The notes: generated by a model from the sequence alone, not told the origin. A DNA stretch of 64,000 nucleotides from Deltaproteobacteria bacterium (GCA_947445035.1 CANFCK010000001.1:50044-114043); one strand, 5' to 3'. Counted from the stretch's first letter, positions 3,017 to 42,837 are shown. Translations and numbers: made by a program.

Positions 3017-4516
3017 CTACCAGGGAGTCGGCTGGTCCGCCGCAAGGCCGGCGCGGACACGCTCGCCCACGCTGCGCAGCGCCGGATGCAGGATCTGGTC
3101 GTCCTGCCAGAATGGCACCACCTGGCGCACCCGCCCGTGGAGGGCGAGGATCTGCTCGCCAACCGTCTCCGGAGGCCCGTCGATACGGACACCCTCGACC
3201 ACCCGCATCCCGCGCAGGCGCCAATCCAGGCCCTGGGCGGCGACGAGCGCCTCGATCCCGATGATGTCGGCCAGGCATTCCAAGACCCGCAAGGTGAGCC
3301 GCGCCGCGATCGGGCCCATGCTGACGTGATCCTCGTGGTGTTGCACCGTCGGGATGCTGTCGACACTGGCAGGATGGGAGAGCCCCTTACATTCGCTGGC
3401 CAGCGACGCGGCCGTGTACTGGGCGAGCATGAACCCGCTATTGAGGCCCGTGCCTTCGACGAGGAAGCTCGGCAGGTCCTGGGTGAGCGAGGCGGCGGTG
3501 AGGCGAAAGGTCCGCCGCTCGCTCTGAGTCGCGACCTGGGTGAGCGCGATTCGCAGGGTATCCATCGCCAGCGCCACCGGAGCGCCGTGGAAGTTGCCCC
3601 CCTCCACCACGCCCTCGCCTTCGAACCACAGCGGGTTGTCACACGCCCCGTTGAGCTCGTCCGTCACCGTGCCCTCCACCCACTCCAGGCAGTCGAGCGC
3701 GGTGCCCAGGACAGCCGGAGCGGCACGCAGCGAGAACGCGTCTGGGGCACCCACAGCGGCCCCTGGCGCGCCGAGCCGCTCACGAAGCCGCGTCGCGACG
3801 ATCACCCCGCCGCGATGCCCGCGGGCGGACAAAAGCGCGTTCGAGAGGCAGCGGGCGTCGGCCCGCGACACCGCCAGGGTCATCGCGCAGGCGTCCACGG
3901 CTGCGTCCAGGAGGCGGCGCGCACGGTGGACGGAGATCGCCGCCAGCGCGCTGGTGAGCGTGGCGCCGTTGATGACGGAAAGGGCCTCCTTCGGCGTAGG
4001 CGAGAAGCCCGCCAGCGGGGAAGGACCCACCGACCCGTCCGGGCGTTCCGCCGGACCCCCAAGCCCGAAGAGCACCCTGGCCACGTGGGCCAGCGGCGCG
4101 AGGTCGCCAGCGGCCCCCACCGAGCCCTGGCCGGGCACCACCGGGACGATCCCCGTGTTGAGCATGGTGCACATCGCATCCACCAGCGCGGGGCGAACCG
4201 CAGAGTGGCCGCTGGCCAGGACGTTGGCCCGGCAGGCCAACAACGCCCGCACCTGCCCGCTGGGCAGCGGGTCGCCCACACCGGCGCAGTGGTCGAGCAC
4301 AAAGCGCCGCACGCTCTCGTCCCCGGCGGCAGCCGGGGTGCCGAGCAGCACCTTGCGCTTCTGGTCGAGCACGCTCGGAAACGCAGGGTAGCCCCGCGCG
4401 GAACGCTCCATCGCCGGCCGCGCGCGGTCGGCGAGCCCAACCCGGGCGCCACCGGCGATGGCCGCGACGTCAGCCGCGGTCAAGCTCCGGCCGTCGAGCT
4501 CAATGGTCGGCGTCAT
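3017..4516 (-). CDS. HAL/PAL-family (aromatic amino acid lyase fold) paralog with a degenerate active site
   Basis: 499 aa. It has GSVGAAGDLAPLAH where the family has the GSVGASGDLAPLAH MIO triad, plus NGACDNP and QHHEDHVSM family motifs. The N-terminal YG(I/V)NTGFG motif is absent. Its start overlaps the upstream stop (ATGA). Confidence 0.85.
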   Translation of the reverse strand: MTPTIELDGRSLTAADVAAIAGGARVGLADRARPAMERSARGYPAFPSVLDQKRKVLLGTPAAAGDESVRRFVLDHCAGVGDPLPSGQVRALLACRANVLASGHSAVRPALVDAMCTMLNTGIVPVVPGQGSVGAAGDLAPLAHVARVLFGLGGPAERPDGSVGPSPLAGFSPTPKEALSVINGATLTSALAAISVHRARRLLDAAVDACAMTLAVSRADARCLSNALLSARGHRGGVIVATRLRERLGAPGAAVGAPDAFSLRAAPAVLGTALDCLEWVEGTVTDELNGACDNPLWFEGEGVVEGGNFHGAPVALAMDTLRIALTQVATQSERRTFRLTAASLTQDLPSFLVEGTGLNSGFMLAQYTAASLASECKGLSHPASVDSIPTVQHHEDHVSMGPIAARLTLRVLECLADIIGIEALVAAQGLDWRLRGMRVVEGVRIDGPPETVGEQILALHGRVRQVVPFWQDDQILHPALRSVGERVRAGLAADQPTPW

Positions 4517-6015
4517 GCGAACTCCCCCGCCGCGATTCGACAGGCGATGCGCTCGATCGCCTCACCCGGCACCTCCGCCCCCGCGACCAGCGCCTCGACC
4601 AAGGGGAGCGCCGCCTCGGCGCCGGCGCCCAGCCGCACGCCGGGCGCCTCCTCCAGGCGCATACGCAGGGCCCGCGACGCACACAGAAGCTCGATCGCGA
4701 CGACCCGGCGGCTGTTCTGCACCACCTCCCAGAAGCGCCAGGCGGCGGTGGTGGACATGGCCACGTGGTCCTCCTGGTCCTCACAGGTCGGGATGCTGTC
4801 GACGCTCATCGGCCACGCCAGCGCCTTGTTCTCAGAGACGAGCGCCGCCGCCGTGGTCTGCGGAACCAACATGCCCAGGTCCGGACGGTCGCGCCCGGCC
4901 AGGCCCGGCGGCAACCGGGAGCTGAGCGAGCCCGTGGTCAGGCGGTAGAGTCGACGCTCACTCAGCGACGCGAGCTCGGCGACCCCGATCTTCATCGCGT
5001 CGGCGGCGATGCCCACCGGCTCGCCATGGAACAGGCCCGCCGAAAACGCGTGGTTCTCCACGGCCTCGTCCATGAGCATGACCGGGTTGTCGGTGACGCT
5101 GTTGAGCTCGATCTCCACCGCGCGGCGGCCGTACGCCAGCACGTCGCGGGTGGCGCCCAGGACGATGGGCGTACAGCGCAGGGAGTAGGCGTCCTGCACC
5201 TTCTCGGGCATCGAGTCCACGAGCGAGCTGCCGGCCAGAAGCGCCCGCAGGTGCGCCGCGCTGGCGATCGCCCCGGGGTGGGGCCGGAGCGCGTGCACCG
5301 CTGGGTGGAACGCGCGACTGACGCCCCGGAGGGCTTCGATGCTCATGGCCGCCGCGCGCTCGGCTGTGCGCACCAGCACGTCGGCATCCGCCAGCGCCAG
5401 CGCCGCGATGGCCGTCGTGAGCTGGGCACCATTGGTCATCGCCAGGCCGTCCTTGGCCTCGGGGACGAGCGTCGCCAGACCGGCGGCCGCCATCGCCTCC
5501 GGACCCGTCATCAACGCGCCGCCGAACGGGACCTCGCCGCCCTCACCGAATACGACCAGGGCCAGATGGGAGAGCGGCGCAAGGTCGCCCGAGGAGCCAC
5601 AGCTGCCCTGCCGAGGCACGCGGGGGACGACACCCTTGCCGAGCATCGCGCACAGCGTCTCGACCACCAGCGGGCGGCAGCCCGAGGCCCCGCGCGCCAG
5701 CGCGTTCGCCCGCAAAAGCATCATCGCCCGCACGATGTCGTCCGGGCAGGGCGGCCCGACCCCCGCCGCGTGGGAGCGGATGAGGTTCCGCGACAACAGG
5801 CTGGTGTCCGCCGCCGCGATGCGCACCCGCGCCAGCGACCCGAATCCGGTGTTGATGCCATAGACCGGCTGGTCGCCGTGTAGCGTGGCCCGAACCCAGG
5901 CGTAGGAACGCTCCATCTCGGCCCGTCCTGCCCCTGAAAGCGCGACAGCGCCTGCCTGACGGGAGACCCGCACCAACTCAACCAGCGTCAGGGCGCGGCC
6001 GTCCAGCCAGATCAT
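4513..6015 (-). CDS. HAL/PAL-family MIO-type ammonia-lyase/aminomutase (HutH-like motifs, SSG triad)
   Basis: 500 aa with VYGINTGFG, RSHAAGVG, GSCGSSGDLAPLSHL, SVTDNPV and EDQEDHVAMS. All family motifs are present, but the triad is SSG rather than ASG. Confidence 0.9.
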   Translation of the reverse strand: MIWLDGRALTLVELVRVSRQAGAVALSGAGRAEMERSYAWVRATLHGDQPVYGINTGFGSLARVRIAAADTSLLSRNLIRSHAAGVGPPCPDDIVRAMMLLRANALARGASGCRPLVVETLCAMLGKGVVPRVPRQGSCGSSGDLAPLSHLALVVFGEGGEVPFGGALMTGPEAMAAAGLATLVPEAKDGLAMTNGAQLTTAIAALALADADVLVRTAERAAAMSIEALRGVSRAFHPAVHALRPHPGAIASAAHLRALLAGSSLVDSMPEKVQDAYSLRCTPIVLGATRDVLAYGRRAVEIELNSVTDNPVMLMDEAVENHAFSAGLFHGEPVGIAADAMKIGVAELASLSERRLYRLTTGSLSSRLPPGLAGRDRPDLGMLVPQTTAAALVSENKALAWPMSVDSIPTCEDQEDHVAMSTTAAWRFWEVVQNSRRVVAIELLCASRALRMRLEEAPGVRLGAGAEAALPLVEALVAGAEVPGEAIERIACRIAAGEFA

Positions 6016-6725
6016 GGAATGTCCGTCCAGAGCGAGGTCGGCCCGGCCTTGAGCCCGCCGTCCTCACCGACCGTGAACCACGCGCGGAAGCCCTTGTGCT
6101 CGGCCTGGCCGTGCACAAGGACCTCGAAGACCCCGTCCCCGTCGCGATCCACCGGGGCGGTCAGGACCGGCACCGCGCAGCTGGCCTCGGCCCCAGGCAG
6201 GGGCATCGTCGAAATCGTTCCTTCGGCCTCGGCGTCGAGCACCGCGATGGCCGCTTTGCAGTCGCCGGGATCCAGCACCGGCGCGCGCCCCCCTCCGGCA
6301 AGGGGGATTCCATGCGTACCAACGGTCGCGACCGCGAGATAGACCGGCGGCGCCAGCTTGCGGCGCATCTTCACCACGCTCCGCATCGACACGCCCGCGC
6401 CACGCGCCGGATCGATCTCCCGCGTCTTGTGGCTGCCGAGCACGTCCCGCAATCGGAATCCCGCCCGTTCCACCAACGCCGCCGGCACCGGGCCGCCCTT
6501 TTCGACGGCCGGAAGCTCCCGATCGACGATCCACAGCGGCCCGGCCGCCCCGAGGAGCGTCGTGCCGTCCGGACCGGGCGTCGGCACCCGCGTCACCGTC
6601 CCCGTGGGCCCCCAGAGCATGACCGGCGCGGTCAACGTGCCGCGCGCGACCGCGTTGGCCCCCGACTTGTAGACGCCGACGTCGGGGACGGGCGAGGGAC
6701 AGGCGAGTAGCAAGGCCAGGAGCAC
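6012..6725 (-). CDS. Hypothetical lipoprotein, first gene of the HAL-like operon
   Basis: GTG start. The N-terminus MLLALLLAC has a lipobox-like Cys. A DRDGDGVFEVLV FG-GAP-like segment lies near the C-terminus. The stop overlaps the next start by 4 nt. Confidence 0.6.
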   Translation of the reverse strand: MLLALLLACPSPVPDVGVYKSGANAVARGTLTAPVMLWGPTGTVTRVPTPGPDGTTLLGAAGPLWIVDRELPAVEKGGPVPAALVERAGFRLRDVLGSHKTREIDPARGAGVSMRSVVKMRRKLAPPVYLAVATVGTHGIPLAGGGRAPVLDPGDCKAAIAVLDAEAEGTISTMPLPGAEASCAVPVLTAPVDRDGDGVFEVLVHGQAEHKGFRAWFTVGEDGGLKAGPTSLWTDIP

Positions 6726-6748
6726 GCCGGCGCCTTATCCGCGTTTGC

Positions 6749-7279
6749 ATGTCCATCGACCCAGCCACTACCCAACTCCTCGTCGTGGACTACCAAGAGC
6801 GGCTCTTCGGCGCGATGCCCGAGGCGGCGAGGGAGAGTGCCCGCAAAGCCGCCGATACCCTCGTGTTCACCGCCCGCGAGCTGGGCATCCCGGTCACCTT
6901 CACCGAGCAATACCCCCAAGGGCTCGGCGCCACCCTGCCCGAGCTGGTCGCGGTCGATCCCTTCGTGAAGTTGGCGTTCGCCGCGACGGACGAGCCTGGA
7001 TTCGACGCCCGCCTTGCCGGACGACCCCACGTCGTGGTCTTCGGCATGGAGACCCACATCTGCGTCGCCCACACCGCTTTGGGCCTACGCGCCCGCGGAT
7101 TGGCGGTCAGCGTCGCCTACGACGCCTGCCTGTCGCGACGCACTGCCGATTCCGACGCCGGCCTGATTTGGATGCGCGAGGAAGGTGCGCTGATCTTACC
7201 GAGCGAGACCCTTATTTTTGGCTGGTTAGGGCGCGCCGAGGGTCCACTGTTCAAAGCGGTCAGTCGGCGCATTCGTTAG
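6749..7279 (+). CDS. Isochorismatase-family cysteine hydrolase
   Basis: 176 aa. LLVVDYQ near the N-terminus, VVVFGMETHICV with the catalytic Cys context, and overall length all fit the isochorismatase family. Confidence 0.85.
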   Translation: MSIDPATTQLLVVDYQERLFGAMPEAARESARKAADTLVFTARELGIPVTFTEQYPQGLGATLPELVAVDPFVKLAFAATDEPGFDARLAGRPHVVVFGMETHICVAHTALGLRARGLAVSVAYDACLSRRTADSDAGLIWMREEGALILPSETLIFGWLGRAEGPLFKAVSRRIR

Positions 7280-7386
7280 GCCACCAAAAAAAGAAACGCC
7301 GAGCCTCCCTACACGCAGGCGTCTGAAGGGGGACAAACCTGCGCGAGTGGGACGTCTCGGCGAACGGCGCCTATCCCGACCCCCGA

Positions 7387-8883
7387 CTACCCGCCGCACT
7401 CCGGGGTCTCGTTTTCGATCCGCTTGAGCTCGTCCAAGCCGGTGTCCGCGCCCCAGACGTCCTCGCCGATCTTGTTGATCTCGAAGCTGCCGTTCATCGT
7501 CCACACCGAGCCCGAGCTGTCGTTGCTGTAGAAGAGCACCTGGAAGTCACCGACCAGCGGGGAATCCAGCGTGCCCGGCTCAAGCGCGTCGACCTCGTCG
7601 CGCGTGGCCTTCAGCCGAACCCAGCCGGGGTTGATCGAGGACCAGTTGTCGAAGCCCTCGGGCTTGCCGCCCTCCCCAGCCGGGGTCGTGCGCCAGGAAT
7701 TGTCTTCGATCTTGATGGTGAAGGGGAGCGCGTCGCGCGGGAGCGCCGCGTAGTTGGCGAGCTCGTCCTGAACCGGCGCGTAGCTGACGTCGTCCCCATC
7801 CACGCCACCATTGTTGAAATTGTCCTGCAACAACTGCACGAAGTCAGGGTAGTCGGCGATGTTGCAGGAGTCGCCATCCTTGCCGCAATTCAGCTCCGGG
7901 TACTGTTCGGCGCCGACATCGTCGCCGACGCCGTAGCCGGAGACCGTCTTGCCGTCGTCATCCACCCCGACCCACAGCGGGGTAGCGGCGGTGGCCGAGA
8001 AGTCCGCGAAATCGCTGGTGTACATGTACGCGTCTTCGTCGGCGAAGCGCGAGAACGACGCGCCAGCGAGCCAGGTGCGATCGAAGTACCAGTAGTCCCC
8101 GGTGTCGTTGGGGTTGACCTGGGCCGCACCCGAGTTGAGCATGTACACCGTGTAGCCAGCATCCTCCTCGTAGGCCGACGACCACCCGTCGATCCAGTTG
8201 CCATCGTCAAACAGGGTGCGTTCGGTGGCGACGCCGTCGATGTCCACACACTCGGTGGGCTGGAAGTTGGGCTTGATGACCCAGCCGAAGCGCACGTCCC
8301 CGAACTTGGTGTCCATGTGAAGGGTCAGCTGCAGGTCGCCTTCAGAGGTGATGATCGCCTCTTCGCGCCAGGTCGCCACGTCGCCGTGGTTCAGGTAAAA
8401 CGACTTGTCATCAAAGAAGTTGAGGTAGCGCGCAGTCTGCACCGTGCAGTCATCCGGCGTGAGCATGTCGCCGTCGGGATCGTTCTCGGGGTCGTCATCG
8501 TGCGCCTCGGCGCAGCAGAACTCCTCGTAGTTGGCGTCCCAGCCCGGAATGAGCGCGTCCCGGATCCGCACCGGATTGTCGGAGTACGGCGCCGCACCGA
8601 ACGTGCGACAGTCGAACGGGGTCAGATCGTACGCATCCTGAAACGCCTTTTCCGCCTTGACCTTGTCTGCCCAGCATTCGTCGGCGAAAATCTGTTCGGG
8701 GTCGATTTCGTCGGCGAGGGGATCATTCTGATCGTATTCGCACTGTACGGCGGCTTCGTCGCGACGGAGACGCTGTACGTTGCTCGACGTGGCCGCGGCA
8801 AAGTACATGGCGTACGTTCCCTTGAACGTGGCGTCATGGGGGTCACAGCCGCCGAGTAGGGCGAGCACGAGGGGAAGGGACAT
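7387..8883 (-). CDS. Acidic secreted lipoprotein, hypothetical
   Basis: Internal ATG at 8881..8883 gives MSLPLVLALLGGC (lipobox). The protein is rich in Asp/Trp/Tyr and has several Cys pairs. The upstream part of ORF 7387..9177 is Arg-rich junk and would overlap the neighbouring gene. Confidence 0.7.
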   Translation of the reverse strand: MSLPLVLALLGGCDPHDATFKGTYAMYFAAATSSNVQRLRRDEAAVQCEYDQNDPLADEIDPEQIFADECWADKVKAEKAFQDAYDLTPFDCRTFGAAPYSDNPVRIRDALIPGWDANYEEFCCAEAHDDDPENDPDGDMLTPDDCTVQTARYLNFFDDKSFYLNHGDVATWREEAIITSEGDLQLTLHMDTKFGDVRFGWVIKPNFQPTECVDIDGVATERTLFDDGNWIDGWSSAYEEDAGYTVYMLNSGAAQVNPNDTGDYWYFDRTWLAGASFSRFADEDAYMYTSDFADFSATAATPLWVGVDDDGKTVSGYGVGDDVGAEQYPELNCGKDGDSCNIADYPDFVQLLQDNFNNGGVDGDDVSYAPVQDELANYAALPRDALPFTIKIEDNSWRTTPAGEGGKPEGFDNWSSINPGWVRLKATRDEVDALEPGTLDSPLVGDFQVLFYSNDSSGSVWTMNGSFEINKIGEDVWGADTGLDELKRIENETPECGG

Positions 8884-8927
8884 CTTCGACTCCGACCCCG
8901 TCCTATAGGCCGTCAGGGGGCGGTTCG

Positions 8928-9899
8928 TCAAGCACCACGGCTGATCGAAGCGGCGATTCCACCGCCGTGTTCCGGGTACCGCCAGACGAACGCGAGCTCC
9001 TTTTCGAGGCGGTCCACGTTCAACCGCGCGCTGGCGGTGAACAGCCTCAGGTTGTCGTTGGTAAATCTGGGCTTTCGACCCATGGCGGCCGCCATCCGTT
9101 CGTTCTGCTCGGCGAGCGCCGCCTGAATCACGCTCGGGACCCACGTCGACCAGAAGCGCACCGGCTTGCCGCCGCAACGGGCCGTCACCGCCGCGTAGAA
9201 CTCAGACAGCGTGGGCGTTCCGGGGGCGCTGACGTTCCACAGGCCGGGCTCCCCCCGTGTGCCGATCGCCATGAGCGCGGCCACACAGTCATCGATGTGG
9301 ACGACCGGAACGCGGTTGCGTCCTTCGCCCGGGAGCCAAGCATGCCCCGCCCGGATGCGATCCTCCTGCATGAATCGTAGGCCGGGACCGTACACCGCCG
9401 CAATGCGCGCCACCCGCAGCCGAAGCCCGGTAGCGGCGGCGACCTCGCGCAGCCGGGCCTCGGCAGCGAGCTTGGCCCGACCATACTGGGTCTGCGGTGC
9501 CGCCGGGTGCGCCTCGCCCACCCACAGGCCGCTGCGGTCCCCGTACACGGCGCAACTCGATGCGAAAGTGAACGAGCTCAGCCTGTTGGCGTGCTTGCCG
9601 GCCGCGACGGCGAGCGGTTCCGTGCCGACCCGGTTGAGCCGATCGGCGTCGATTCGCCCGGCACCGCGGAGGCCGCCGGCAAGGTGCCAGACGTGGTCGG
9701 CCTCGGCGACCCCTCGCTCGATGGCGGCGGCATCCTCGAGGTGCCCGAGCAGCAGCCTTGCTCCGTCGGCAACCACGGTCCGCCCTCGCGCTTCGTCGCG
9801 GACGAGCACGGTCACGTCGTGCCCCGCCGTCAGCAACGCCCGAACGAGCGGGAGCCCGATCTGTCCGGTCCCGCCGGTCACGAAGGAGCGCTCAGCCAT
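8928..9899 (-). CDS. NAD-dependent epimerase/dehydratase family protein
   Basis: Internal ATG at 9897..9899 gives MAERSFVTGGTGQIGLPLVRALL, a Rossmann GxxGxxG motif. The rest is an extended-SDR-like body. Confidence 0.85.
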   Translation of the reverse strand: MAERSFVTGGTGQIGLPLVRALLTAGHDVTVLVRDEARGRTVVADGARLLLGHLEDAAAIERGVAEADHVWHLAGGLRGAGRIDADRLNRVGTEPLAVAAGKHANRLSSFTFASSCAVYGDRSGLWVGEAHPAAPQTQYGRAKLAAEARLREVAAATGLRLRVARIAAVYGPGLRFMQEDRIRAGHAWLPGEGRNRVPVVHIDDCVAALMAIGTRGEPGLWNVSAPGTPTLSEFYAAVTARCGGKPVRFWSTWVPSVIQAALAEQNERMAAAMGRKPRFTNDNLRLFTASARLNVDRLEKELAFVWRYPEHGGGIAASISRGA

Positions 9900-34003: not shown

Positions 34004-37000
34004 TCAGACGTTGCGGCGGTACTCTCCGCCCACTTCGTACAGGGCGTGGCTGATCTGCCCGAGGGACGCGACACGAACGGTGCGCATCAGCTCTGCGAAC
34101 AGGTTGCCGCCGTCGAGCGCCACCTGCCGCAGGCGGGCCAGCGCCTCCGGTGCGTCGGCACGGTGTTTTTGTTGGAAGGCCGCTACGGCATCGATCTGAG
34201 CTTGCTTCTCAACGGCGCTGCTGCGGCGTAGCTCGATGGTGGGCGGCTCCCAAGCGGCGCCGAGCGTGGTGGGGTCCTGAAAGGTGTTGATGCCGATGAT
34301 CGGCAAGGTACCGTCGTGCTTCTGCTCCTCGTAGAACAGCGATTCTTCCTGAATCTTTCCGCGTTGGTACTGCGTTTCCATCGCGCCGAGCACGCCCCCT
34401 CGGCTGTCGATGCGCTCGAACTCGACAAGCACGGCCTCCTCGACGAGATCGGTCAGCTCATCGACGATGAAGCTGCCCTGGAGCGGGTTCTCGTTCTTGG
34501 CCCAGCCCAGCTCCTTGTTGATGATCATCTGAATCGCCATCGCACGGCGCACGGACTCCTCTGTCGGTGTGGTCACAGCCTCGTCGTAGGCGTTGGTGTG
34601 CAAGGAGTTGCAGTTGTCGAAGAGCGCGAGGAGCGCCTGAAGACTGGTACGGATGTCGTTGAACTGAATCTCCCGCGCGTGGAGCGACCTGCCGCTGGTC
34701 TGGATGTGATACTTCAGCTTCTGACTACGTTCATCGGCGCCATACCGCTCCTTCATTGCGACGGACCAGATGCGCCGCGCCACCCGACCGATGACCGTGT
34801 ACTCGGGGTCGAGGCCATTGCTGAAGAAGAAGCTGAGGTTTGGGGCAAAGTCGTCGATCTTCATTCCGCGCGCCAGGTAGTACTCCACGAAGGTGAAGCC
34901 GTTGGAGAGCGTGAACGCCAGCTGGCTGATGGGGTTGGCCCCGGCTTCGGCGATGTGGTAGCCCGAGATGCTGACGCTATAGTAGTTGCGAACGTCGTTT
35001 TCGACGAAGTAACTCTGGATGTCGCCCATCATCCTCAGCGCAAACTCGGTCGAGAAGATGCAGGTGTTCTGCGCCTGATCTTCTTTGAGGATGTCCGCCT
35101 GGACGGTGCCGCGCACCGTTCGGAGCACATGGGCCTGAATCGCCACGTTCTCCCCCGCGTCAGGGGCTCGGCCGTGCGTTGCGAGAAAGGCGTCCACCTG
35201 CTGGTCGATCGCGGTGTTCATGTACATGGCCAGCAGCATGGGCGCTGGGCCGTTGATGGTCATGCTCACGCTGGTGTTCGCCGCGCAGAGGTCGAATCCC
35301 CCGTACAAAACCTTCATGTCGTCGAGCGTCGGCACACTCACGCCGGACTCTCCGATCTTCCCGTAGATGTCGGGCCGGATGGCAGGGTCTTCGCCGTAGA
35401 GCGTGACGCTGTCAAACGCAGTCGAGAGGCGCTTCGCGGGCTCGCCCTGACACAGGTAGTGGAACCGGGCGTTGGTCTTGGCCGGCCCTCCCTCACCCGC
35501 GAACATCCGCTTGGGGTCCTCGTTGGTGCGCTTCAACGGGAAGACACCGGCGGTGTAGGGGAAGAAGCCCGGAAAGTTCTCCAGCATCGACCACTGGACG
35601 ATGTCGCCGTCATCGGTGAATCGCGGTGTAGCGATGCGCGGGACCTTGAGCCGGCTGAGCGAGAGGCTGACCAGCGGCTGGGTGATGGCCTTGCCGCGCA
35701 CCTCGTAGGTATAGGTGTCCTGCCGGTAGCGCTCTACCAGCGGTGCGTAGGCGCCCAACAAGGTGTCGGCGTCAGCGTCGAGCGTGATGGCATCGCGCTT
35801 GTGGAGGAGTGCCACCCCCAGCTCCGGCACCTCAGCCGCGGCACGAACGAGCGCCTGGCGGCGTCGGGCACGGCTGGCGTTGTCGGCGGCGCGGCGACGG
35901 TAACCGCGGCAGGTGTCGCTGATCTCCCCGAGATACCGCTGCCGATCGGGCGGGACGATGCGCCGCCGAGGCGGGCTGGCGCGGGTGCCGGGGTCGGGGA
36001 CGGAGCTCGGGTAGGCCCGGCCGGTGTGCTCGGCGAGCTCACCCAAAAGCGCCAGGTACGCGGCGTTGACGCCCGGGTCGTTGAACTGCGAGGCGATGGT
36101 CCCGAAGACCGGCAGCGCTTCGTCAGGCGTAGAGAAGAGCTCGCCGTTGCGCTTGACCTGTTTGCGCACGTCCCGCAGCGCGTCCTCGCCACCACGACGC
36201 TCGAACTTGTTGACCACCACGAGGTCCGCGTGGTCGAGCATGTCGATCTTCTCGAGCTGGCTGGGCGCGCCGAACTCCGGCGTCATCACGTAGACCGCGA
36301 TGTCCGCCAGCTTGACGATGCCGGCATCGGACTGGCCGATGCCGCTGGTCTCCACAAAGATGACGTCCACCCCGGAGGCGCGGCAGATCTCGACGGCTTC
36401 AGCGGTCGCGGCGCTCAATTCCCCCTTTTCGCCGCGCGTTGCCAGCGAGCGCATGAACACGCCGTCCCCGTGGATGGCGTTCATCCGGATGCGGTCGCCC
36501 AACAAGGCGCCGCCGCTCTTCTTTCGGGTGGGGTCGATGCTGAGCACGGCGAGGCGGTGCGCCGGAAAGTCGCGCCGGTATCGACGAACCAACTCGTCAC
36601 AGAAACTCGACTTTCCAGCGCCGCCGGTGCCGGTCAAACCGATGATGGGAGCTGGGTTTTTGACGGCCAGCGCGGCGATCTGGGCCGCGGTCTCGGCCGG
36701 GAGACGATCGTTTTCGGCCAACGAGATCGCACGGGCGATGCTGCCGGCCCGACCGTGCGTCAGCCCCACCAGGACATCGCTCCCCACGCCGAGGTCGAAG
36801 TCGGACCGGCGCATCAGGTCCTCGATCATCCCCACCAGGCCCATGCGGCGGCCGTCTTCGGGACTGTAAATGCGCTCCACCCCATAGGCGTGGAGCTCCC
36901 GAATCTCTTCCGGGACGATCACCCCGCCCCCACCGCCGAAAACCTTGATGTGCCCGGCGCCGAGCTCACGAAAGAGGTCGACCATGTATCGGAAATACTC

Positions 37001-37228
37001 GTTGTGGCCGCCCTGGTACGAGCTGACCGCCACCGCCTGGGCGTCTTCCATGATCGCCGCATCGACGATCTCGCGCACCGACCGGTTGTGCCCGAGGTGG
37101 ACCACCTCGGCACCAAGGCTCTGCAAGATGCGCCGCATCACATTGATCGAGGCATCGTGCCCATCGAAGAGCGATGCCGCGGTCACGATGCGGACCGGGT
37201 TCACCGGATGGAAACGTTGGCTCTGCAC
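34004..37228 (-). CDS. icmF: Fused isobutyryl-CoA mutase (B12-binding + MeaB-like G protein + mutase catalytic domain)
   Basis: 1074 aa. The N-terminal B12 domain has [10 protein letters not shown] (the DxHxxG-type His ligand region). The central P-loop is [12 protein letters not shown]. The C-terminal part is a methylmalonyl-CoA-mutase-like TIM barrel. Confidence 0.92.
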
Positions 37229-37268: not shown

Positions 37269-38459
37269 CTACGGGGGCGGCTCTTCCCCGGTGTCAGGCA
37301 TCATCGGCGGCGGCTGGCACGATGCCATCGCGTAGATGGCCGAGCCGATGTCGATGGCAGTGCCAGCGGCGCCGGTGGAGAGCTCGTAGGGCACGACCGA
37401 CGTTCCCTCACCCGACCAGACGCTCGGCTGGGCGATCGCCAGCAAGTCGCCGGTGGTCCCGGTGGTGAGGGTGCCAATGGACGTGCCGTCGCCAATGTAG
37501 TGGGTGACGGTGACGACGCCGCTGGCCTGGGTCGCGATCCAGACCGTGCCGTCGCTGCCGCCCCCGGTCATCCCGACGAAGGTTTGCCCGGTGAGGTCCA
37601 GCACCACGCCGCCGCTGGCAAGGGTGCTGACGTCGAACACTTCCAGCATGGCGCCGACGCTCCCGTGCGGTTCCAGCGCCATGAGCACGCCCGCCGCAGT
37701 GCCCACGCTGTCACGACCGGCGTTGCCGCCGGCGATGCGCCCGCTGCTGGCGATCGAGCCGCTTCCCGAGAAGTCGAGCACAGCGACGCCGCTGGATTCG
37801 TAGACGCCAGACGTGCGATTCACCCGGGCCACGACCGCGGCCACGCCAGTCGGGCCGGACCCAAAGCTCATCACGTCAGGGTTGCCGTCGCCATCGGCCA
37901 ACGAGGAGAGATCGATGCTGGCGGACGCCGCTCCCGCGTCGTTGAAGCCCACGACCGACGCGCTGCCCGTGCCGCCGAACCAGGTGTTCGGTGACTGGTA
38001 ATAGACGGCCTGCGGCGCAAAGCCGGCGTCCAGCGTCAAGGTCTTGGCCACCGTCTTTTCGCGTGAATTGATCCCGACGGCAGAATCACCCATGATCCAG
38101 ACGAACTGCCCTGCGCACCCCAGGGTGTCCGTCGGCGACGCCGTGAGCCCGCTGACGACGGCGGACGTACCGGCGCTGGGGTCGATCAAGTGCACTTCCG
38201 CGCCACCAGCCCCGTCATCGGCCAGGACCACGACTGTGGGCGGGCCGAAGTAGCCGCTTTCCGGGATGGGCGGGTTGGTGTCCGCCGTGTCGCCGGTTTC
38301 CCCGGTATCGGTGCCGGTATCCGTGCCGGTATCGGAATCGGTGCCCGTGTCCGAGGTGTCGGCCGTATCCGCCGAGTCTTTTCCCGAGGTGTCCGTTGTG
38401 TCGCCGTCACAGCCGAGAACGAGGACGAGAGGCAGAATCAAGAGCTTGGTGCGGTGCAT
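37269..38459 (-). CDS. Hypothetical lipoprotein with an Asp/Thr/Gly-rich linker
   Basis: ATG 38457..38459 gives MHRTKLLILPLVLVLGC (lipobox), then a DTTDTSGKDSADTADTSDTGTDSDTGTDTGTDTG linker and a beta-rich body. Confidence 0.7.
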   Translation of the reverse strand: MHRTKLLILPLVLVLGCDGDTTDTSGKDSADTADTSDTGTDSDTGTDTGTDTGETGDTADTNPPIPESGYFGPPTVVVLADDGAGGAEVHLIDPSAGTSAVVSGLTASPTDTLGCAGQFVWIMGDSAVGINSREKTVAKTLTLDAGFAPQAVYYQSPNTWFGGTGSASVVGFNDAGAASASIDLSSLADGDGNPDVMSFGSGPTGVAAVVARVNRTSGVYESSGVAVLDFSGSGSIASSGRIAGGNAGRDSVGTAAGVLMALEPHGSVGAMLEVFDVSTLASGGVVLDLTGQTFVGMTGGGSDGTVWIATQASGVVTVTHYIGDGTSIGTLTTGTTGDLLAIAQPSVWSGEGTSVVPYELSTGAAGTAIDIGSAIYAMASCQPPPMMPDTGEEPPP

Positions 38460-38592
38460 GTGGTCTCCAGCGGCCACGACGCTAACCTGAAAAGCCTCCC
38501 ACCCGCAGTTCCATCGGTCAAGGATGTGCTGGGAGAGCGGCCGGCTGGCTCAGGGCCGGCATTCGGGGTAAGGCCGCCGCCCGGGAGGGTGG

Positions 38593-39486
38593 ATGGTCCA
38601 GAGCCGTCCGGACTGGCTCAAAGTCAAGATGCCTGGCGGCGACCGGTACAACCGGATCAAAGCCCGGGCTCGCGAATTGCGCCTGCACACCGTGTGCGAA
38701 GAAGCCCGCTGCCCAAACGTTGGGGAGTGCTGGGGCGGAGGCACAGCCACGTTCATGGTGCTCGGCGACACCTGCACCCGTGGCTGCCGTTTCTGCGCGG
38801 TGATGACCGCGCGCAACCCCCCGCCGCCCGACGCGGCCGAGCCCGCTAATCTAGCCGATGCCATCGCTGAGATGGAGCTCGACTTCGTGGTGGTGACCAG
38901 CGTCAACCGCGACGACCTGCTCGACCAGGGGGCTGGGCACTTCGCGGCCTGCATCACCGCCTCGCGGGCCCGCAGTCCGCGCACGCTCGTCGAGGTCCTG
39001 ATCCCCGATCTGCGCGGTGACACCACGCTCTTGGACGTGATCCTGGCCGCGCGTCCCGATGTCCTGGCGCACAACGTCGAGACTGTGCCGCGGCTGCAGC
39101 TCCCCGTGCGCGACCCGCGCGCCTCCTGGTCGCAGTCCCTCGCCATCCTGGCCCACGCCAAGTCGCGCGGCGCGCTCACCAAGACCTCGATCCAGATCGG
39201 CCATGGTGAGACAGAGCGCGAGGTTCTCGACGCCATGCGGGAGCTTCGCGGCATCGACGTCGACTTCATCACCTTGGGGCAGTACCTGCGTCCAACACCC
39301 GCCCACCTCGCGGTCACCGAGTTCGTCACGCCGGAAGTCTTCGCGCGCTACGAGGCAGCCGGCCTGGCGATGGGCTTCCGTTACGTCGCGAGCGGGCCGC
39401 TCGTTCGATCCTCCTACAAGGCCGGTGAATACTTCATGCGCGACCTCATCCGGGCCCGTTCCGCCGTCCCGCAAGGGGACGCATGA
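38593..39486 (+). CDS. lipA: Lipoyl synthase
   Basis: RPDWLKVK, the CEEARCPNxxEC auxiliary cluster motif and the radical-SAM motif CTRGCRFC. Confidence 0.95.
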   Translation: MVQSRPDWLKVKMPGGDRYNRIKARARELRLHTVCEEARCPNVGECWGGGTATFMVLGDTCTRGCRFCAVMTARNPPPPDAAEPANLADAIAEMELDFVVVTSVNRDDLLDQGAGHFAACITASRARSPRTLVEVLIPDLRGDTTLLDVILAARPDVLAHNVETVPRLQLPVRDPRASWSQSLAILAHAKSRGALTKTSIQIGHGETEREVLDAMRELRGIDVDFITLGQYLRPTPAHLAVTEFVTPEVFARYEAAGLAMGFRYVASGPLVRSSYKAGEYFMRDLIRARSAVPQGDA

Positions 39487-40283
39487 CGCTCGGGCGCGAC
39501 GCGCTACGCGGGGCGCTGGCCGCCCACGCGGCAACGGCCACGGGAATCCTGGTCGGCGAAGGCGTCGGTGTGGCCGGCGTTTGCGCGGGTCTGGCCGGCA
39601 ACCAGCTCCGCACCCCGCTGTCGGAGGCGGGTTCCGTGGGGGTTGCGATCGGCCTCGCGTTGGCCGGTCGAGCGCCGGTGGTAGAGCTCATCGATCTTGC
39701 GGGGCTCGGCCGCGCCGCGGAAGCGCTCGGCGAGGCGGCGGACGTGGCGCTGCGCAGTGGTGGGGCCTTTCGAGCCACGATCGTGGTTCTGGCGGCGCTG
39801 CCGGACACGGCGGTCATCCCGACGCTTCCACCGGGAGTGACGCTCGCGGTCGCGGGTGTGCCCGAGGACGCCGCGGGCTTGCTCGCGGCGGCGCTCGGGG
39901 GGGGCGGGCCCGTTGTCCTCCTCGTCGCGGAGGCGGCGCTCGACGAGCGCGGAGAAGGCCCTTTCGATCCCCTCGGGGTACCGACAGTGCGTCGCGCCGG
40001 GTCAGGCGCCACCGTGCTCGCGGAGGGGGCCGGGGTCGCGCTGGCGCTCGCCGTGCCCAGCGAGGCCGAGGTCATCGACCTACGTGGGTGTCGCGACCCG
40101 GTCAGGCTCGGAGCGCTCTTCGGGCGCACGGGCCGGGTGGTGCTCTTCAGCCACGGAACCCAGCCCCTGGTCGCGGCGTTGGGCGACCACTTCTGGCGCC
40201 TCGAAAGCCGACCCGTCTTCGTTCCCGTCTCCGGGGGCGCCGACGCGCTCCGGGCGGCGCTCACCGACTCGTTCTCTCCCTGA
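39483..40283 (+). CDS. 2-oxoacid dehydrogenase E1 beta-like protein, shortened/divergent
   Basis: 266 aa that aligns by eye to E1 beta / transketolase Pyr + C-terminal domains (GEGVG..., RTPLSEAGSVGVAIGLALAGRAPVVEL, AEVIDLRGCRDP). It is about 60 aa shorter than typical E1 beta. The ATGA overlaps lipA. Confidence 0.7.
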   Translation: MTLGRDALRGALAAHAATATGILVGEGVGVAGVCAGLAGNQLRTPLSEAGSVGVAIGLALAGRAPVVELIDLAGLGRAAEALGEAADVALRSGGAFRATIVVLAALPDTAVIPTLPPGVTLAVAGVPEDAAGLLAAALGGGGPVVLLVAEAALDERGEGPFDPLGVPTVRRAGSGATVLAEGAGVALALAVPSEAEVIDLRGCRDPVRLGALFGRTGRVVLFSHGTQPLVAALGDHFWRLESRPVFVPVSGGADALRAALTDSFSP

Positions 40284-40293
40284 GGAAGCCCTG

Positions 40294-41595
40294 ATGTTCG
40301 TATTCGAGCTGCCGGAGATCGGCGAAGGTGTTGTCGAGGGCGAGATCGTGAGCTGGAAAATCGCCGCCGGCGAGATGGTGGCTATCGATCAGCCGATCTG
40401 CGAGATCATGACCGACAAGGCAACGGTGGAGATCAGCTCGCCGAAGTCCGGCCGCGTGGTGCGGCTGCACGGGGTTCCCGGCGACGTGATCAAGGTTCAC
40501 AGCGCGCTCATGGAGCTTGACCTGACTGGAGGCGGCGTCGCGGCCGCGCCGGCGGCCACCTCCGTTCCTGTCGCGACGCCCACCGCCAAGGCCGCGCCGC
40601 CACCCCCGGTAAAAACCTTGGCCAATGCCGCGACCACTCCCGCCGCCGGTCCCCACCCCGCGGTCGCCGCACGCCTGCCACCGCCGCCGCGTCCCGCTGG
40701 CGAAAAGGCCCTCGCCAGCCCTGCTGTCCGCCACGAAGCCAGTTCCCGCGGGGTCGAGTTGGACCTCGTCCCCGGCTCCGGAAAGGGCGGCCGTGTCACG
40801 CGTGACGACCTTGCCAGCTTCAACCAGGCCGCGCTGCCCAAGGCACCGCCCGCGCTCGTCGCCCCCATCGTCACCGCCGGCGCGGTGAACCAAGGTGACC
40901 AGCGGGTCCGGATCATCGGGCTCCGCCGCAAGATCAGCGAAAAGATGGTGCACGCCTGGCAGACGGCGCCGCACTTCACCTACGTCGATGAGCTCGACGC
41001 CAGCCGGTTGGTCGATCTCCGCAAATCCCTGGCTCCCCTCGCCGAAGCGCGCGGCGTCAAGCTCAGCTACCTGCCCTTCGTCATGAAGGCGCTGGTTTTG
41101 GTCTTCCGGGAGTTCCCGACGCTCAACGCGGTGATGGACGAGGCGAATTTCGACCTCATCGTCCGCGGCAACGTGAACATCGGGATCGCGACCGACACCC
41201 CAGCGGGGCTTTTCGTCCCGGTCATCAAGGATGTCCAGGCCAAGTCGCTTTTGCAGCTCGCGGCGGAGATCGCCGATGTCACCCAGCGCACCCGCGAAGG
41301 GAAGGCGAAGCTGGACGAGCTGAGCGGCGGCACGTTCACGATCACGTCGGTCGGCAACATCGGCGGGCGCTTCGCCACACCGATCCTCAATACTCCCGAG
41401 GTCGCCATCCTCGGCCTGAACCAGATTCACGACCGCCCGGTCGCGGTCGACGGCCTGGTGGTGATTCGACCGATGATGTACCTCTCGCCCAGCTTCGATC
41501 ATCGGGTGATCGACGGCGCGGTGGCCGCCCGCGCGGTCAGCGCGCTCAAGGCGATCCTCGAGAACCCAGCTCGACTTTTCGCGGACATGCTGTGA
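40294..41595 (+). CDS. Dihydrolipoamide acyltransferase (E2) of a 2-oxoacid dehydrogenase complex
   Basis: Lipoyl domain with EIMTDKATVEI, an Ala/Pro linker, a peripheral-subunit-binding domain (ASPAVRHEASSRGVELDLVPGSGKGGRVT) and a catalytic domain with DHRVIDGA. Confidence 0.92.
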   Translation: MFVFELPEIGEGVVEGEIVSWKIAAGEMVAIDQPICEIMTDKATVEISSPKSGRVVRLHGVPGDVIKVHSALMELDLTGGGVAAAPAATSVPVATPTAKAAPPPPVKTLANAATTPAAGPHPAVAARLPPPPRPAGEKALASPAVRHEASSRGVELDLVPGSGKGGRVTRDDLASFNQAALPKAPPALVAPIVTAGAVNQGDQRVRIIGLRRKISEKMVHAWQTAPHFTYVDELDASRLVDLRKSLAPLAEARGVKLSYLPFVMKALVLVFREFPTLNAVMDEANFDLIVRGNVNIGIATDTPAGLFVPVIKDVQAKSLLQLAAEIADVTQRTREGKAKLDELSGGTFTITSVGNIGGRFATPILNTPEVAILGLNQIHDRPVAVDGLVVIRPMMYLSPSFDHRVIDGAVAARAVSALKAILENPARLFADML

Positions 41596-42152
41596 ACGGC
41601 GACAGCCCCAACGGTTTTCGCACCTGGTGCGAGGCGCAGCCCGCCGCCTCCGGGGTGCTCGGCGTCGCAGCGCTGGTGGAAGGCGTTGTCGCAGCGGTGC
41701 CGAAGCGGGCATGGCTTTTCCCCGGGCGGCGGGAGCGTGGTGCGGCGATCCTCCGCGGGGCCGATGCGGAGCGGATCGCAGCGGCGCGGCCGTACAAAGT
41801 GGTGCCCCCTGGGGAGTCCCCTTCGGTGCGCGCGCTGACCGCCGTGGGCGTCGCGATCGCGGGCGAGCCCGCGGTCTGCTTCCTCGGCACGGGCTCGGTC
41901 AGCTACGGCAACGTCTCCGAGGCCTTGAACCTCGCCGCGCTGCACAAGGCGCCGGTGGTCTTCGTGGTGTCCTGGTACGGCGAGGATGGCCCCTTCGCGC
42001 CGCAGTTGGCGGTCTCGCCCGCGGTTTATGGCGCGGCCCTCGGGCTGGCGACGGCGACTTGTGACGGGGCCGACGCGGACAGCGTGAGCGCCGCGGTGAA
42101 GAAGGTGGGGGCCGGCCCAGCGCTGGTGGTTGCGACGATGCCGCATGGCTGA
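41592..42152 (+). CDS. E1 alpha-like fragment-sized protein with a degenerate ThDP-binding motif
   Basis: 186 aa with a GTG start overlapping the E2 stop. CFLGTGSVSYGNVSEALNLAALHKAPVVFVVSWY aligns to the E1 alpha sequence GDGA..EG.FHEALNFAA..KLPV.FV.ENN, but the Asp and the NN are lost. Confidence 0.6.
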   Translation: MNGDSPNGFRTWCEAQPAASGVLGVAALVEGVVAAVPKRAWLFPGRRERGAAILRGADAERIAAARPYKVVPPGESPSVRALTAVGVAIAGEPAVCFLGTGSVSYGNVSEALNLAALHKAPVVFVVSWYGEDGPFAPQLAVSPAVYGAALGLATATCDGADADSVSAAVKKVGAGPALVVATMPHG

Positions 42153-42837
42153 GGACCACTGGGAGGTCTTGGACGCCGCGCTTCCGCTGGTTGGCCTCCG
42201 CTACGGACCCCAGGACACGCGCATGGCCCTGGTCGGCCTGGGCGGCGGTGATTTGCTGGTGATGAGCCCGGGGTCGGGGCTGTCGGAGCTCGAGTGGGCG
42301 CGGATCGCCGAGTTCGGCACGCCGCGCTGGCTCCTGGCGCCCAACCACTTTCACAGCGCGGGCATCGGCGCGTGGAAGGAGCGGTATCCGCGCGTGCGGG
42401 TCGTCGCCCATCCCACCGCGATCCCTCGACTGAAAATCAAGGTGCCGACGGTGGAGTTCGAGGACGTCTCCAGCTTGGCGGTCGCTTTGCCCACCTCGGT
42501 GCGGTTGATGCACCCACCGACCACCAAGCAAGGGGAGACCTGGCTTTCCATGCGCGTGGGCGTCGGTTGCGCGTGGTTCGTCACCGACGGCCTCGTCAAC
42601 GAGACCAAGCTTCCCGGCTTGTTGGGCGGGTTGATGTGGCTCATCGGGTTTCGGGCCCGGCTGATGGTGAATCCGCTGTTCAAACGGATTTTCCTCCGCG
42701 ATCTCGCGGCGTACCAAGCCTGGGTGCTCGGAGAGTTGGAGCGAGACGCGCCGACCCTGTTCATCCCTTCCCATGGGGCCGTCATCCGCGGCGAGGACAC
42801 CACGGCGCGGCTGCGGGCGGCGGTCGAGCAAGGATGA
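42145..42837 (+). CDS. MBL-fold-like protein (DUF4336-like)
   Basis: Start MAEDHWEVL. It contains LLAPNHFHSAG and IPSHGAVIRG segments resembling a degenerate metallo-beta-lactamase fold. It overlaps the preceding stop by 8 nt. Confidence 0.6.
   Translation: MAEDHWEVLDAALPLVGLRYGPQDTRMALVGLGGGDLLVMSPGSGLSELEWARIAEFGTPRWLLAPNHFHSAGIGAWKERYPRVRVVAHPTAIPRLKIKVPTVEFEDVSSLAVALPTSVRLMHPPTTKQGETWLSMRVGVGCAWFVTDGLVNETKLPGLLGGLMWLIGFRARLMVNPLFKRIFLRDLAAYQAWVLGELERDAPTLFIPSHGAVIRGEDTTARLRAAVEQG

Follow-up and report, generated by a model that had tools for sequence, protein, structure and literature searches.

The 2-oxoacid dehydrogenase complexes are textbook assemblies, and the non-catalytic subunits known from them either derive from the acyltransferase component E2 or are small adaptors. 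The E3-binding protein (E3BP; PDHX or protein X), a non-catalytic paralogue of a catalytic subunit, is a structural part of the eukaryotic pyruvate dehydrogenase (PDH) complex; it derives from E2 and its role in recruiting the component E3 is experimentally established. The locus described here occupies positions 38593-42837 of a 64,000-nucleotide stretch from a Deltaproteobacteria bacterium (GCA_947445035.1 CANFCK010000001.1:50044-114043; the whole stretch is hereafter referred to as the window) and encodes the lipoyl synthase LipA, an E2 and two shortened proteins resembling the alpha and beta subunits of E1, hereafter alpha' and beta'. In all likelihood, alpha' and beta' are conserved and selected relics of an E1 that no longer use thiamine diphosphate (ThDP) and flank a functional E2. 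The operon represents a variant of a very well known system and does not amount to a system of a new kind. For alpha', beta' and E2 alike, the closest counterpart in sequence and fold is the PDH of Geobacillus stearothermophilus (1W85/1W88/3DUF), with E1p alpha2beta2 on E2p's peripheral subunit-binding domain (PSBD).

Five open reading frames (ORFs) lie head to tail on the plus strand in a region of 68% G+C, placed as in an earlier reading made from the sequence alone (hereafter the sequence-only reading):

38593-39486, plus strand: lipA, lipoyl synthase, 297 aa (TIGR00510; Radical_SAM and LIAS_N)
39483-40283, plus strand: beta', shortened E1beta-like protein, 266 aa (weak profile matches, alignment and AlphaFold2 (AF2) fold)
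40294-41595, plus strand: E2 dihydrolipoyl acyltransferase, 433 aa (Pfam Biotin_lipoyl, E3_binding and 2-oxoacid_dh)
41592-42152, plus strand: alpha', core of the E1alpha pyrophosphate (PP) domain only, 186 aa (partial E1_dh match, profile alignment and AF2 fold)
42145-42837, plus strand: DUF4336-like protein, about 230 aa (ESM Atlas neighbours)

The lipA stop overlaps the ATG start of beta' (ATGA), the E2 stop lies in a GTGA overlap with alpha', and the fifth ORF has a likely ATG at 42145 overlapping the alpha' stop; beta' and E2 are spaced by 10 nt, with a GAGGAAG ribosome-binding site preceding E2. Overlaps of 4 bp occur only in the window's own genus. A scan of promoters and terminators returned a site count not above that of shuffled sequence. 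The locus shares with Geobacillus PDH the lipoyl-PSBD-core architecture of E2 and the split type of E1. Unlike the alpha-beta-E2-E3 order of that system, the order here is beta-E2-alpha and the operon contains no E3 gene, as had been read at first; two E3 genes were found elsewhere in the genome.

Alpha' is half the length of the E1p alpha subunit. It matches just positions 121-206 (86 of 300) of Pfam E1_dh, with 33.7 bits against a cut-off of 22, and reaches 43.5 and 39.7 bits on the NCBIfam equivalogs PDH_E1_alph_x and PDH_E1_alph_y, for which the cut-offs are 411 and 394. Profile alignment (1e-16 to 5e-17) equates it with residues 65-262 of the 368-aa 1W85_A, the alpha subunit of Geobacillus E1p, so that the N-terminal arm, the outer loop and the C-terminal part carrying H271 are absent. 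The canonical GDG...NN motif is replaced by LGTGS...VVSWY; the profile match and the alignment thus bear out the 186-aa protein with GTG...SWY of the sequence-only reading. The AF2 model, with a mean predicted local distance difference test (pLDDT) score of 91.8, consists of the bare PP-domain core of E1alpha, and its top Foldseek matches are E1alpha chains (query TM-score (TMq) 0.71-0.79, probability 1.00).

Beta' is about 60 aa shorter than canonical E1beta (324-338 aa), again in agreement with the first reading, and falls below all curated cut-offs (Transket_pyr 21.8 bits, cut-off 27; PDH E1beta models 37-38 bits, cut-offs 321-454). Compared with the Geobacillus protein, it gives 1.6e-12 in sequence and a TMq of 0.82 in fold. 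The AF2 model (pLDDT 93.9) has the form of a complete two-domain E1beta with trimmed loops, and comparison with E1beta chains gave TMq values of 0.82-0.86, with 316-331 columns aligned of chains of 317-331 residues.

In Geobacillus E1p, D173alpha, N202alpha and Q200alpha are the residues that hold Mg2+ and the diphosphate, Y102alpha is in contact with both thiazole and phosphate, E59beta is responsible for cofactor activation, the pyrimidine stacks against F85beta, and H271alpha and H128beta have roles in reductive acetylation, with substitution of H128beta alone leaving <5% of the activity of the complex (PMC2663715). Mapping of alpha' and beta' on this enzyme revealed that six of the eight key residues are gone, and the equivalents named as kept are only those of E59beta, R103alpha and E183alpha. 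The position equivalent to D173 holds T in the window and T, S, I, L, P, Q, E or V among the relatives; that of N202 holds Y in the window and H, V, D, E or W in other relatives; that of Y102 holds R or L; and H271 has no equivalent owing to the truncation. Beta', unlike E1p beta, lacks F85, the F82/F85 stretch reading ELIDLAG, and the H128 loop, H128beta falling inside an 11-residue deletion. The equivalent of E59beta is kept in beta' as E48 in the motif TPLSE, with D in several families. Since six of the eight key residues are lost and the lost metal-ligand positions are unconstrained, ThDP catalysis by alpha' and beta' appears very unlikely on the residues compared, and the earlier claim that they are not a standard decarboxylating E1 stands on the residue evidence.

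These residues also bear on the proposal that alpha' and beta' constitute a working miniaturised ThDP enzyme, a minimal heterodimer of a PP and a pyrimidine (Pyr) domain with non-canonical cofactor binding that serves E2 directly, for which the small split decarboxylases provide a model. The cofactor-activating acid E48 of beta', the R103 and E183 equivalents that are invariant in alpha', the strong selection on both genes (see below) and the PP and Pyr domains, both predicted to be intact as folds, would be in keeping with such an enzyme. However, the family shows free variation at both Mg2+ ligand positions, neither Y102 nor F85beta survives, the two catalytic histidines have been deleted and the Glu itself gives way to Asp in several families; with the severe effect of the H128beta substitution alone in Geobacillus E1p (PMC2663715) also speaking against it, a working enzyme is considered distinctly improbable.

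The short forms are widely conserved within a narrow clade. The lengths of alpha' and beta' are constant in >40 genomes, the alpha' query was matched in 39 of 41 relatives, and the order lipA-beta'-E2-alpha' is kept in the examined loci of five families (f1, f2, f4, f6 and f7) wherever the contig is readable. In a sample of 301 genomes of the phylum, strong alpha' matches (at least about 97 bits, open frames mostly <300 aa) were observed only within the window's own order, and the matches outside that order did not exceed 90 bits and were to E1alpha genes of canonical type, 360-400 aa long. The alpha' family is therefore small and restricted to a single clade, as a library of 1.84 billion proteins yielded about 35 clusters (50% identity) at E <= 1e-30. 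It is monophyletic in the tree, with 100/100 support and a long branch. The named records with the operon are all metagenome-assembled genomes (MAGs) of uncultured Myxococcota or 'Deltaproteobacteria', from freshwater and marine sources. Several public operon-bearing MAG records (L038, L039, L050, L052, L054, L058, L059, L066 and L071) are titled Klebsiella, Enterobacteriaceae or Bifidobacterium, apparently through errors in the submitter taxonomy. In one genome of family f7 (G036, locus L018), tblastn gave no beta' match in the 977 bp that separate E2 from lipA (about 6816-7793), a gap of fitting size that may hold a very divergent beta'.

The ratios of nonsynonymous to synonymous substitution rates (dN/dS) between the window and its nearest relative are 0.07 for alpha', 0.12 for beta', 0.09 for lipA and 0.10 for E2. 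An origin of the short genes as frameshift fragments was rejected, because no spare DNA separates the genes, the lengths are constant and the predicted folds are complete and compact; the view that they are genuine genes is thus upheld by the recurrent lengths, the low dN/dS and the confident folds. The loss of catalytic residues and the progressive shrinkage of the proteins would also suit functionless, decaying relics beside an E2 that alone matters. Such decay is nearly excluded, as the frames are intact and of constant length in five families, the dN/dS values are on par with those of lipA and E2, 20 columns are invariant in 20 alpha' sequences with identity down to 39%, and the AF2 models predict confident folds.

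The conservation does not extend to the fifth ORF. The sequence-only reading had described a five-gene arrangement and suggested a test of its conservation; the conserved unit comprises four genes, and the five-gene unit was rejected since G007, the nearest relative (loci L002 and L030), is the only one in which the DUF4336-like gene was found next to the operon. This ORF has no Pfam or NCBIfam match, its link to DUF4336 coming only from feature and structure neighbours in the ESM Atlas (DUF4336 clusters), and it is a lineage-specific passenger.

The two remaining genes of the unit are lipA and that of E2. LipA scores 367.8 bits on TIGR00510 (cut-off 310.25) with Radical_SAM and LIAS_N both present; the gene is the sole match in the whole-genome search and heads the operon throughout the order, as well as in the sister families f8 and f9. 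E2's lipoyl domain, PSBD and catalytic domain are all intact, the three Pfam domains being above their cut-offs (2-oxoacid_dh 2.5e-82), and the motifs include MTDKATVE around the lipoyl-Lys and the FDHRVIDGA of the catalytic domain, so that the intact E2 first recognised by these motifs and its subunit-binding domain is confirmed. The lipoyl-Lys, the PSBD and DHRxxDG are kept across the order and in the sister families. The nearest solved structure is the Geobacillus PDH E2 (3duf_I, 1.3e-89), and no NCBIfam equivalog cut-off is reached. In the best explanation, the operon encodes a housekeeping lipoyl synthase and an E2 core that is fully functional and of PDH/BCKDH type, as in Geobacillus (BCKDH, branched-chain 2-oxoacid dehydrogenase).

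An examination of the genome shows which partners would be available to this E2. The genome also holds a mitochondrial-type PDH (alpha, beta and E2) on contig C37, followed about 3 kb downstream by an E3 gene, so that the search for a canonical complex elsewhere, suggested by the sequence-only reading, yielded a complete PDH. SucA, SucB, a second E3 and two LplA/LipB-type genes were also identified. Two further genes, both outside the window, encode single-chain fusions of E1alpha and E1beta:

G000:C1:456255-458453 (= L026:5256-7457): fusA, single-chain E1alpha-beta fusion, 733 aa, no adjacent E2
G000:C2:345912-348110 (= L025:4913-7114): fusB, single-chain E1alpha-beta fusion, 733 aa, no adjacent E2

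The fusions belong to the same E1 superfamily as alpha' and beta'; unlike them, they keep all the cofactor and catalytic residues (the YR pair, GDG or GDA...DN, His on the alpha side, and Glu and His on the beta side). Among solved structures, those closest to the fusions are BCKDH-type E1s. Both fusions are highly conserved, with identities of 61-96% for fusA across the order. The same inventory recurs in five near-complete genomes from this order, which hold three E2s, a single split E1, a single SucA, two orphan fusions and the remnant alpha'. As the fused E1s have no E2 of their own and the other E2s are assigned, the operon E2 is, by elimination, the only partner available to them, and the fused E1s are likely to be its catalytic partners. 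The suggestion of a repurposed lipoyl-dependent system was not upheld: this E2 is the only one left for two intact-looking fused E1s, the E3 genes lie elsewhere, and it is probably not repurposed. Given the orphan fused E1s and the E3 genes elsewhere, the simplest interpretation is an ordinary oxidative decarboxylation for which E1 is provided in trans. The substrates are probably branched-chain 2-oxoacids, a BCKDH-like role being suggested by elimination (the PDH and SucB E2s are encoded elsewhere), by the BCKDH-type fused E1s and by a neighbouring acyl-CoA mutase of the IcmF type (see below).

The distribution of the fusions was examined across the families (genomes with a match/genomes searched):

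f1: fusA 15/15, fusB 12/15
f2: fusA 15/15, fusB 12/15
f4: fusA 22/23, fusB 19/23
f6: fusA 8/9, fusB 8/9
f7: fusA 5/5, fusB 4/5
f8: fusA 10/15, fusB 1/15
f9: fusA 2/2, fusB 0/2
f3: fusA 0/5, fusB 0/5
f11: fusA 0/8, fusB 0/8

Thus, fusA is found in every family with alpha' and beta' and in the sister families f8 and f9, and fusB is almost confined to the families with alpha' and beta'. In the lineages without fused E1s (f3, f11 and genus g49), catalytic-looking split E1 genes adjoin E2. By this distribution, degeneration of the split E1 tracks the presence of fused E1s, and complete degeneration of the two subunits goes with the presence of both fusions, although the genomes are related and the pattern amounts to one or two evolutionary events and is not a statistic.

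The sister families, which belong to the same class of Myxococcota, provide insights into the origin of the locus. Their E2 proteins are orthologous to that of the window, with 47-53% identity, compared with 32-33% between the operon E2 and the PDH and SucB E2s of the same genome, and their operons (L087-L090 and L092) have the same lipA head. The arrangements observed are as follows:

f8 (loci L088, L089, L090 and L092): lipA-alpha-beta-E2; beta fully canonical with TPLSEAG and HYHSQS; GDG, NN and His already missing from a full-length alpha
f9: lipA-alpha-beta-E2-alpha; beta canonical, first alpha degenerate, second intact alpha after E2
g49, f3, f11 and other members of the phylum: alpha-beta-E2 without lipA linkage; canonical in f3 and f11, and in g49 the first alpha has GEG for GDG, with a second intact alpha after E2

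Unlike in the window, therefore, beta is fully canonical in the sister families, the lipA-proximal alpha has lost GDG, NN and His, and f9 carries in addition an intact alpha behind E2. Since these families pair lipA with a canonical beta, the lipA linkage predates the degeneration, and its interpretation as a special trait of the degenerate forms was rejected. Full-length E1 genes at the same locus, which the sequence-only reading had named as evidence against its proposal, do occur in f8 and f9, though only outside the clade carrying the short forms, and this evidence against it thus holds in part. The alpha' and beta' genes would descend from an ordinary split E1alpha and E1beta that formerly occupied this lipA-linked locus. 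The f9 locus L087 (about 4100-9400; lipA followed by a 275-aa alpha of degenerate sequence, a beta of canonical sequence, E2 and an intact 376-aa alpha) may be an intermediate that shares the beta-E2-alpha order of the window. The parent copy of alpha', whether the lipA-proximal or the post-E2 alpha, is not readable from the tree, and its position after E2 alone suggests the latter. In f8, a lone alpha gene lies about 1 kb upstream of fusA (L083-L085) and clusters with the intact post-E2 alpha of f9.

Taken together, these data are consistent with a model in which a normal E2 core would be lipoylated with the help of the co-encoded LipA, the fused E1alpha-beta enzymes would decarboxylate the substrate and reductively acylate the lipoyl arm of E2 in trans, and an unlinked E3 would re-oxidise that arm. 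Alpha' and beta', having lost ThDP-Mg binding and both catalytic histidines, would have become compact non-catalytic proteins under purifying selection, which would pair as an E1-like assembly, dock on E2, the retained C-terminal domain of beta' most likely contacting the PSBD, and act there as a structural or regulatory subunit. We infer the lipoylation and feeding of E2 and the part of E3 from the genome inventory, and the role of alpha' and beta' on the E2 core from fold, synteny and selection. The model as a whole, with E2 served in trans by the fused E1s and alpha' and beta' kept as non-catalytic partners, is given an even chance of being correct. A more specific form of it, in which alpha' and beta' are a dedicated non-catalytic, E1-derived adaptor on the PSBD sites that organises or gates the access of the fused E1s, E3 or LipA, can be advanced only tentatively as one possibility. 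The analogy with E3BP is in kind only, alpha' and beta' being derived from E1 with a role that is proposed and not established; the E3BP-related entry 6h60 is a weak match to E2.

Several points weigh against this interpretation. The conserved residues of alpha' cluster at the former cofactor pocket (equivalents of R103, E183, P209 and Q213), and the kept pocket residues, along with the activating Glu of beta', may leave room for ligand binding or residual catalysis. The support for an association of alpha' and beta' with each other and with E2 consists of the conserved flanking synteny and the beta C-terminal domain retained in the predicted fold. The pairing of the fused E1s with this E2 draws on elimination and on co-occurrence in related genomes, which perhaps reflects one or two evolutionary events. 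Moreover, all the genomes are MAGs, 73-100% complete, which renders the absences soft.

The conserved pocket-side residues could, in particular, bind a ligand for a purpose independent of E2; alpha' and beta' would then, for instance, sense a small molecule or serve another enzyme as its binding protein, and would stay in the operon by descent only. This is rather unlikely, as both genes tightly flank E2 in all the families, adjoining it or lying 13-120 nt away in the loci read, and beta' retains the C-terminal domain which in E1p lies on the two-fold axis that binds the PSBD. The linkage with lipA points in another direction, namely that alpha' and beta' recognise the apo- or octanoyl-lipoyl domain of E2 and present it to LipA or protect it. 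The linkage is strict and with the only lipA of the genome, the lipA/beta' junction suggests translational coupling, and an E1-derived funnel devoid of chemistry could still bind the lipoyl arm. However, the linkage is older than the degeneration, lipA standing by a canonical E1beta in the sister families and in one of them also with an intact E1alpha; the outer loop and the H271 region that frame the lipoyl channel of E1p are absent from alpha'; and the LipA of model organisms is not known to require an adaptor of this kind. A link with lipoylation is hence regarded as unlikely.

No description of a conserved cofactor-less E1 pair, of an inactive E1 or of myxobacterial fused E1s was found in the searchable literature. 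If the present interpretation is true, an E1-derived cofactor-less pair beside E2 would be a new type of complex component, and, were the adaptor reading also true, a class of pseudo-E1 subunit not described for any 2-oxoacid dehydrogenase complex. The intermediate stages kept in the sister families would then represent a natural case of the conversion of a catalytic subunit into a pseudoenzyme once fused paralogues take over. The proteins are labelled 'hypothetical' or 'pyruvate dehydrogenase E1 alpha/beta' in their source records, and the latter label would lead to an overestimate of what these Myxococcota MAGs, from freshwater and marine sources, are metabolically capable of.

Long Arg/Gly/Pro-rich ORFs that are antisense to or out of frame with the operon genes (window 40261-41712, minus strand; 39059-40294, plus strand; and similar) are artefacts of the high G+C content and not genes. 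Upstream, the following gene is divergent from the lipA operon:

34004-37228, minus strand: IcmF-type fused acyl-CoA mutase (B12-binding, MeaB GTPase and methylmalonyl-CoA-mutase-family parts), 1074 aa (Pfam)

An IcmF-type mutase also occurs 1-6.5 kb upstream of lipA in three genomes of f4 (G033, G295 and G105; loci L017, L094 and L096) and near lipA in the nearest relative (L030), and was not found near lipA in G181, G209, G035, G040 and G016. As a neighbour, it offers a weak hint of branched-chain acyl-CoA metabolism. Between the mutase gene and lipA lies a 402-aa ORF (37269-38477, minus strand) with no Pfam match, the relatives of which (33-69% identity) hold the same lipA-adjacent position in L030, L033, L034 and L037.

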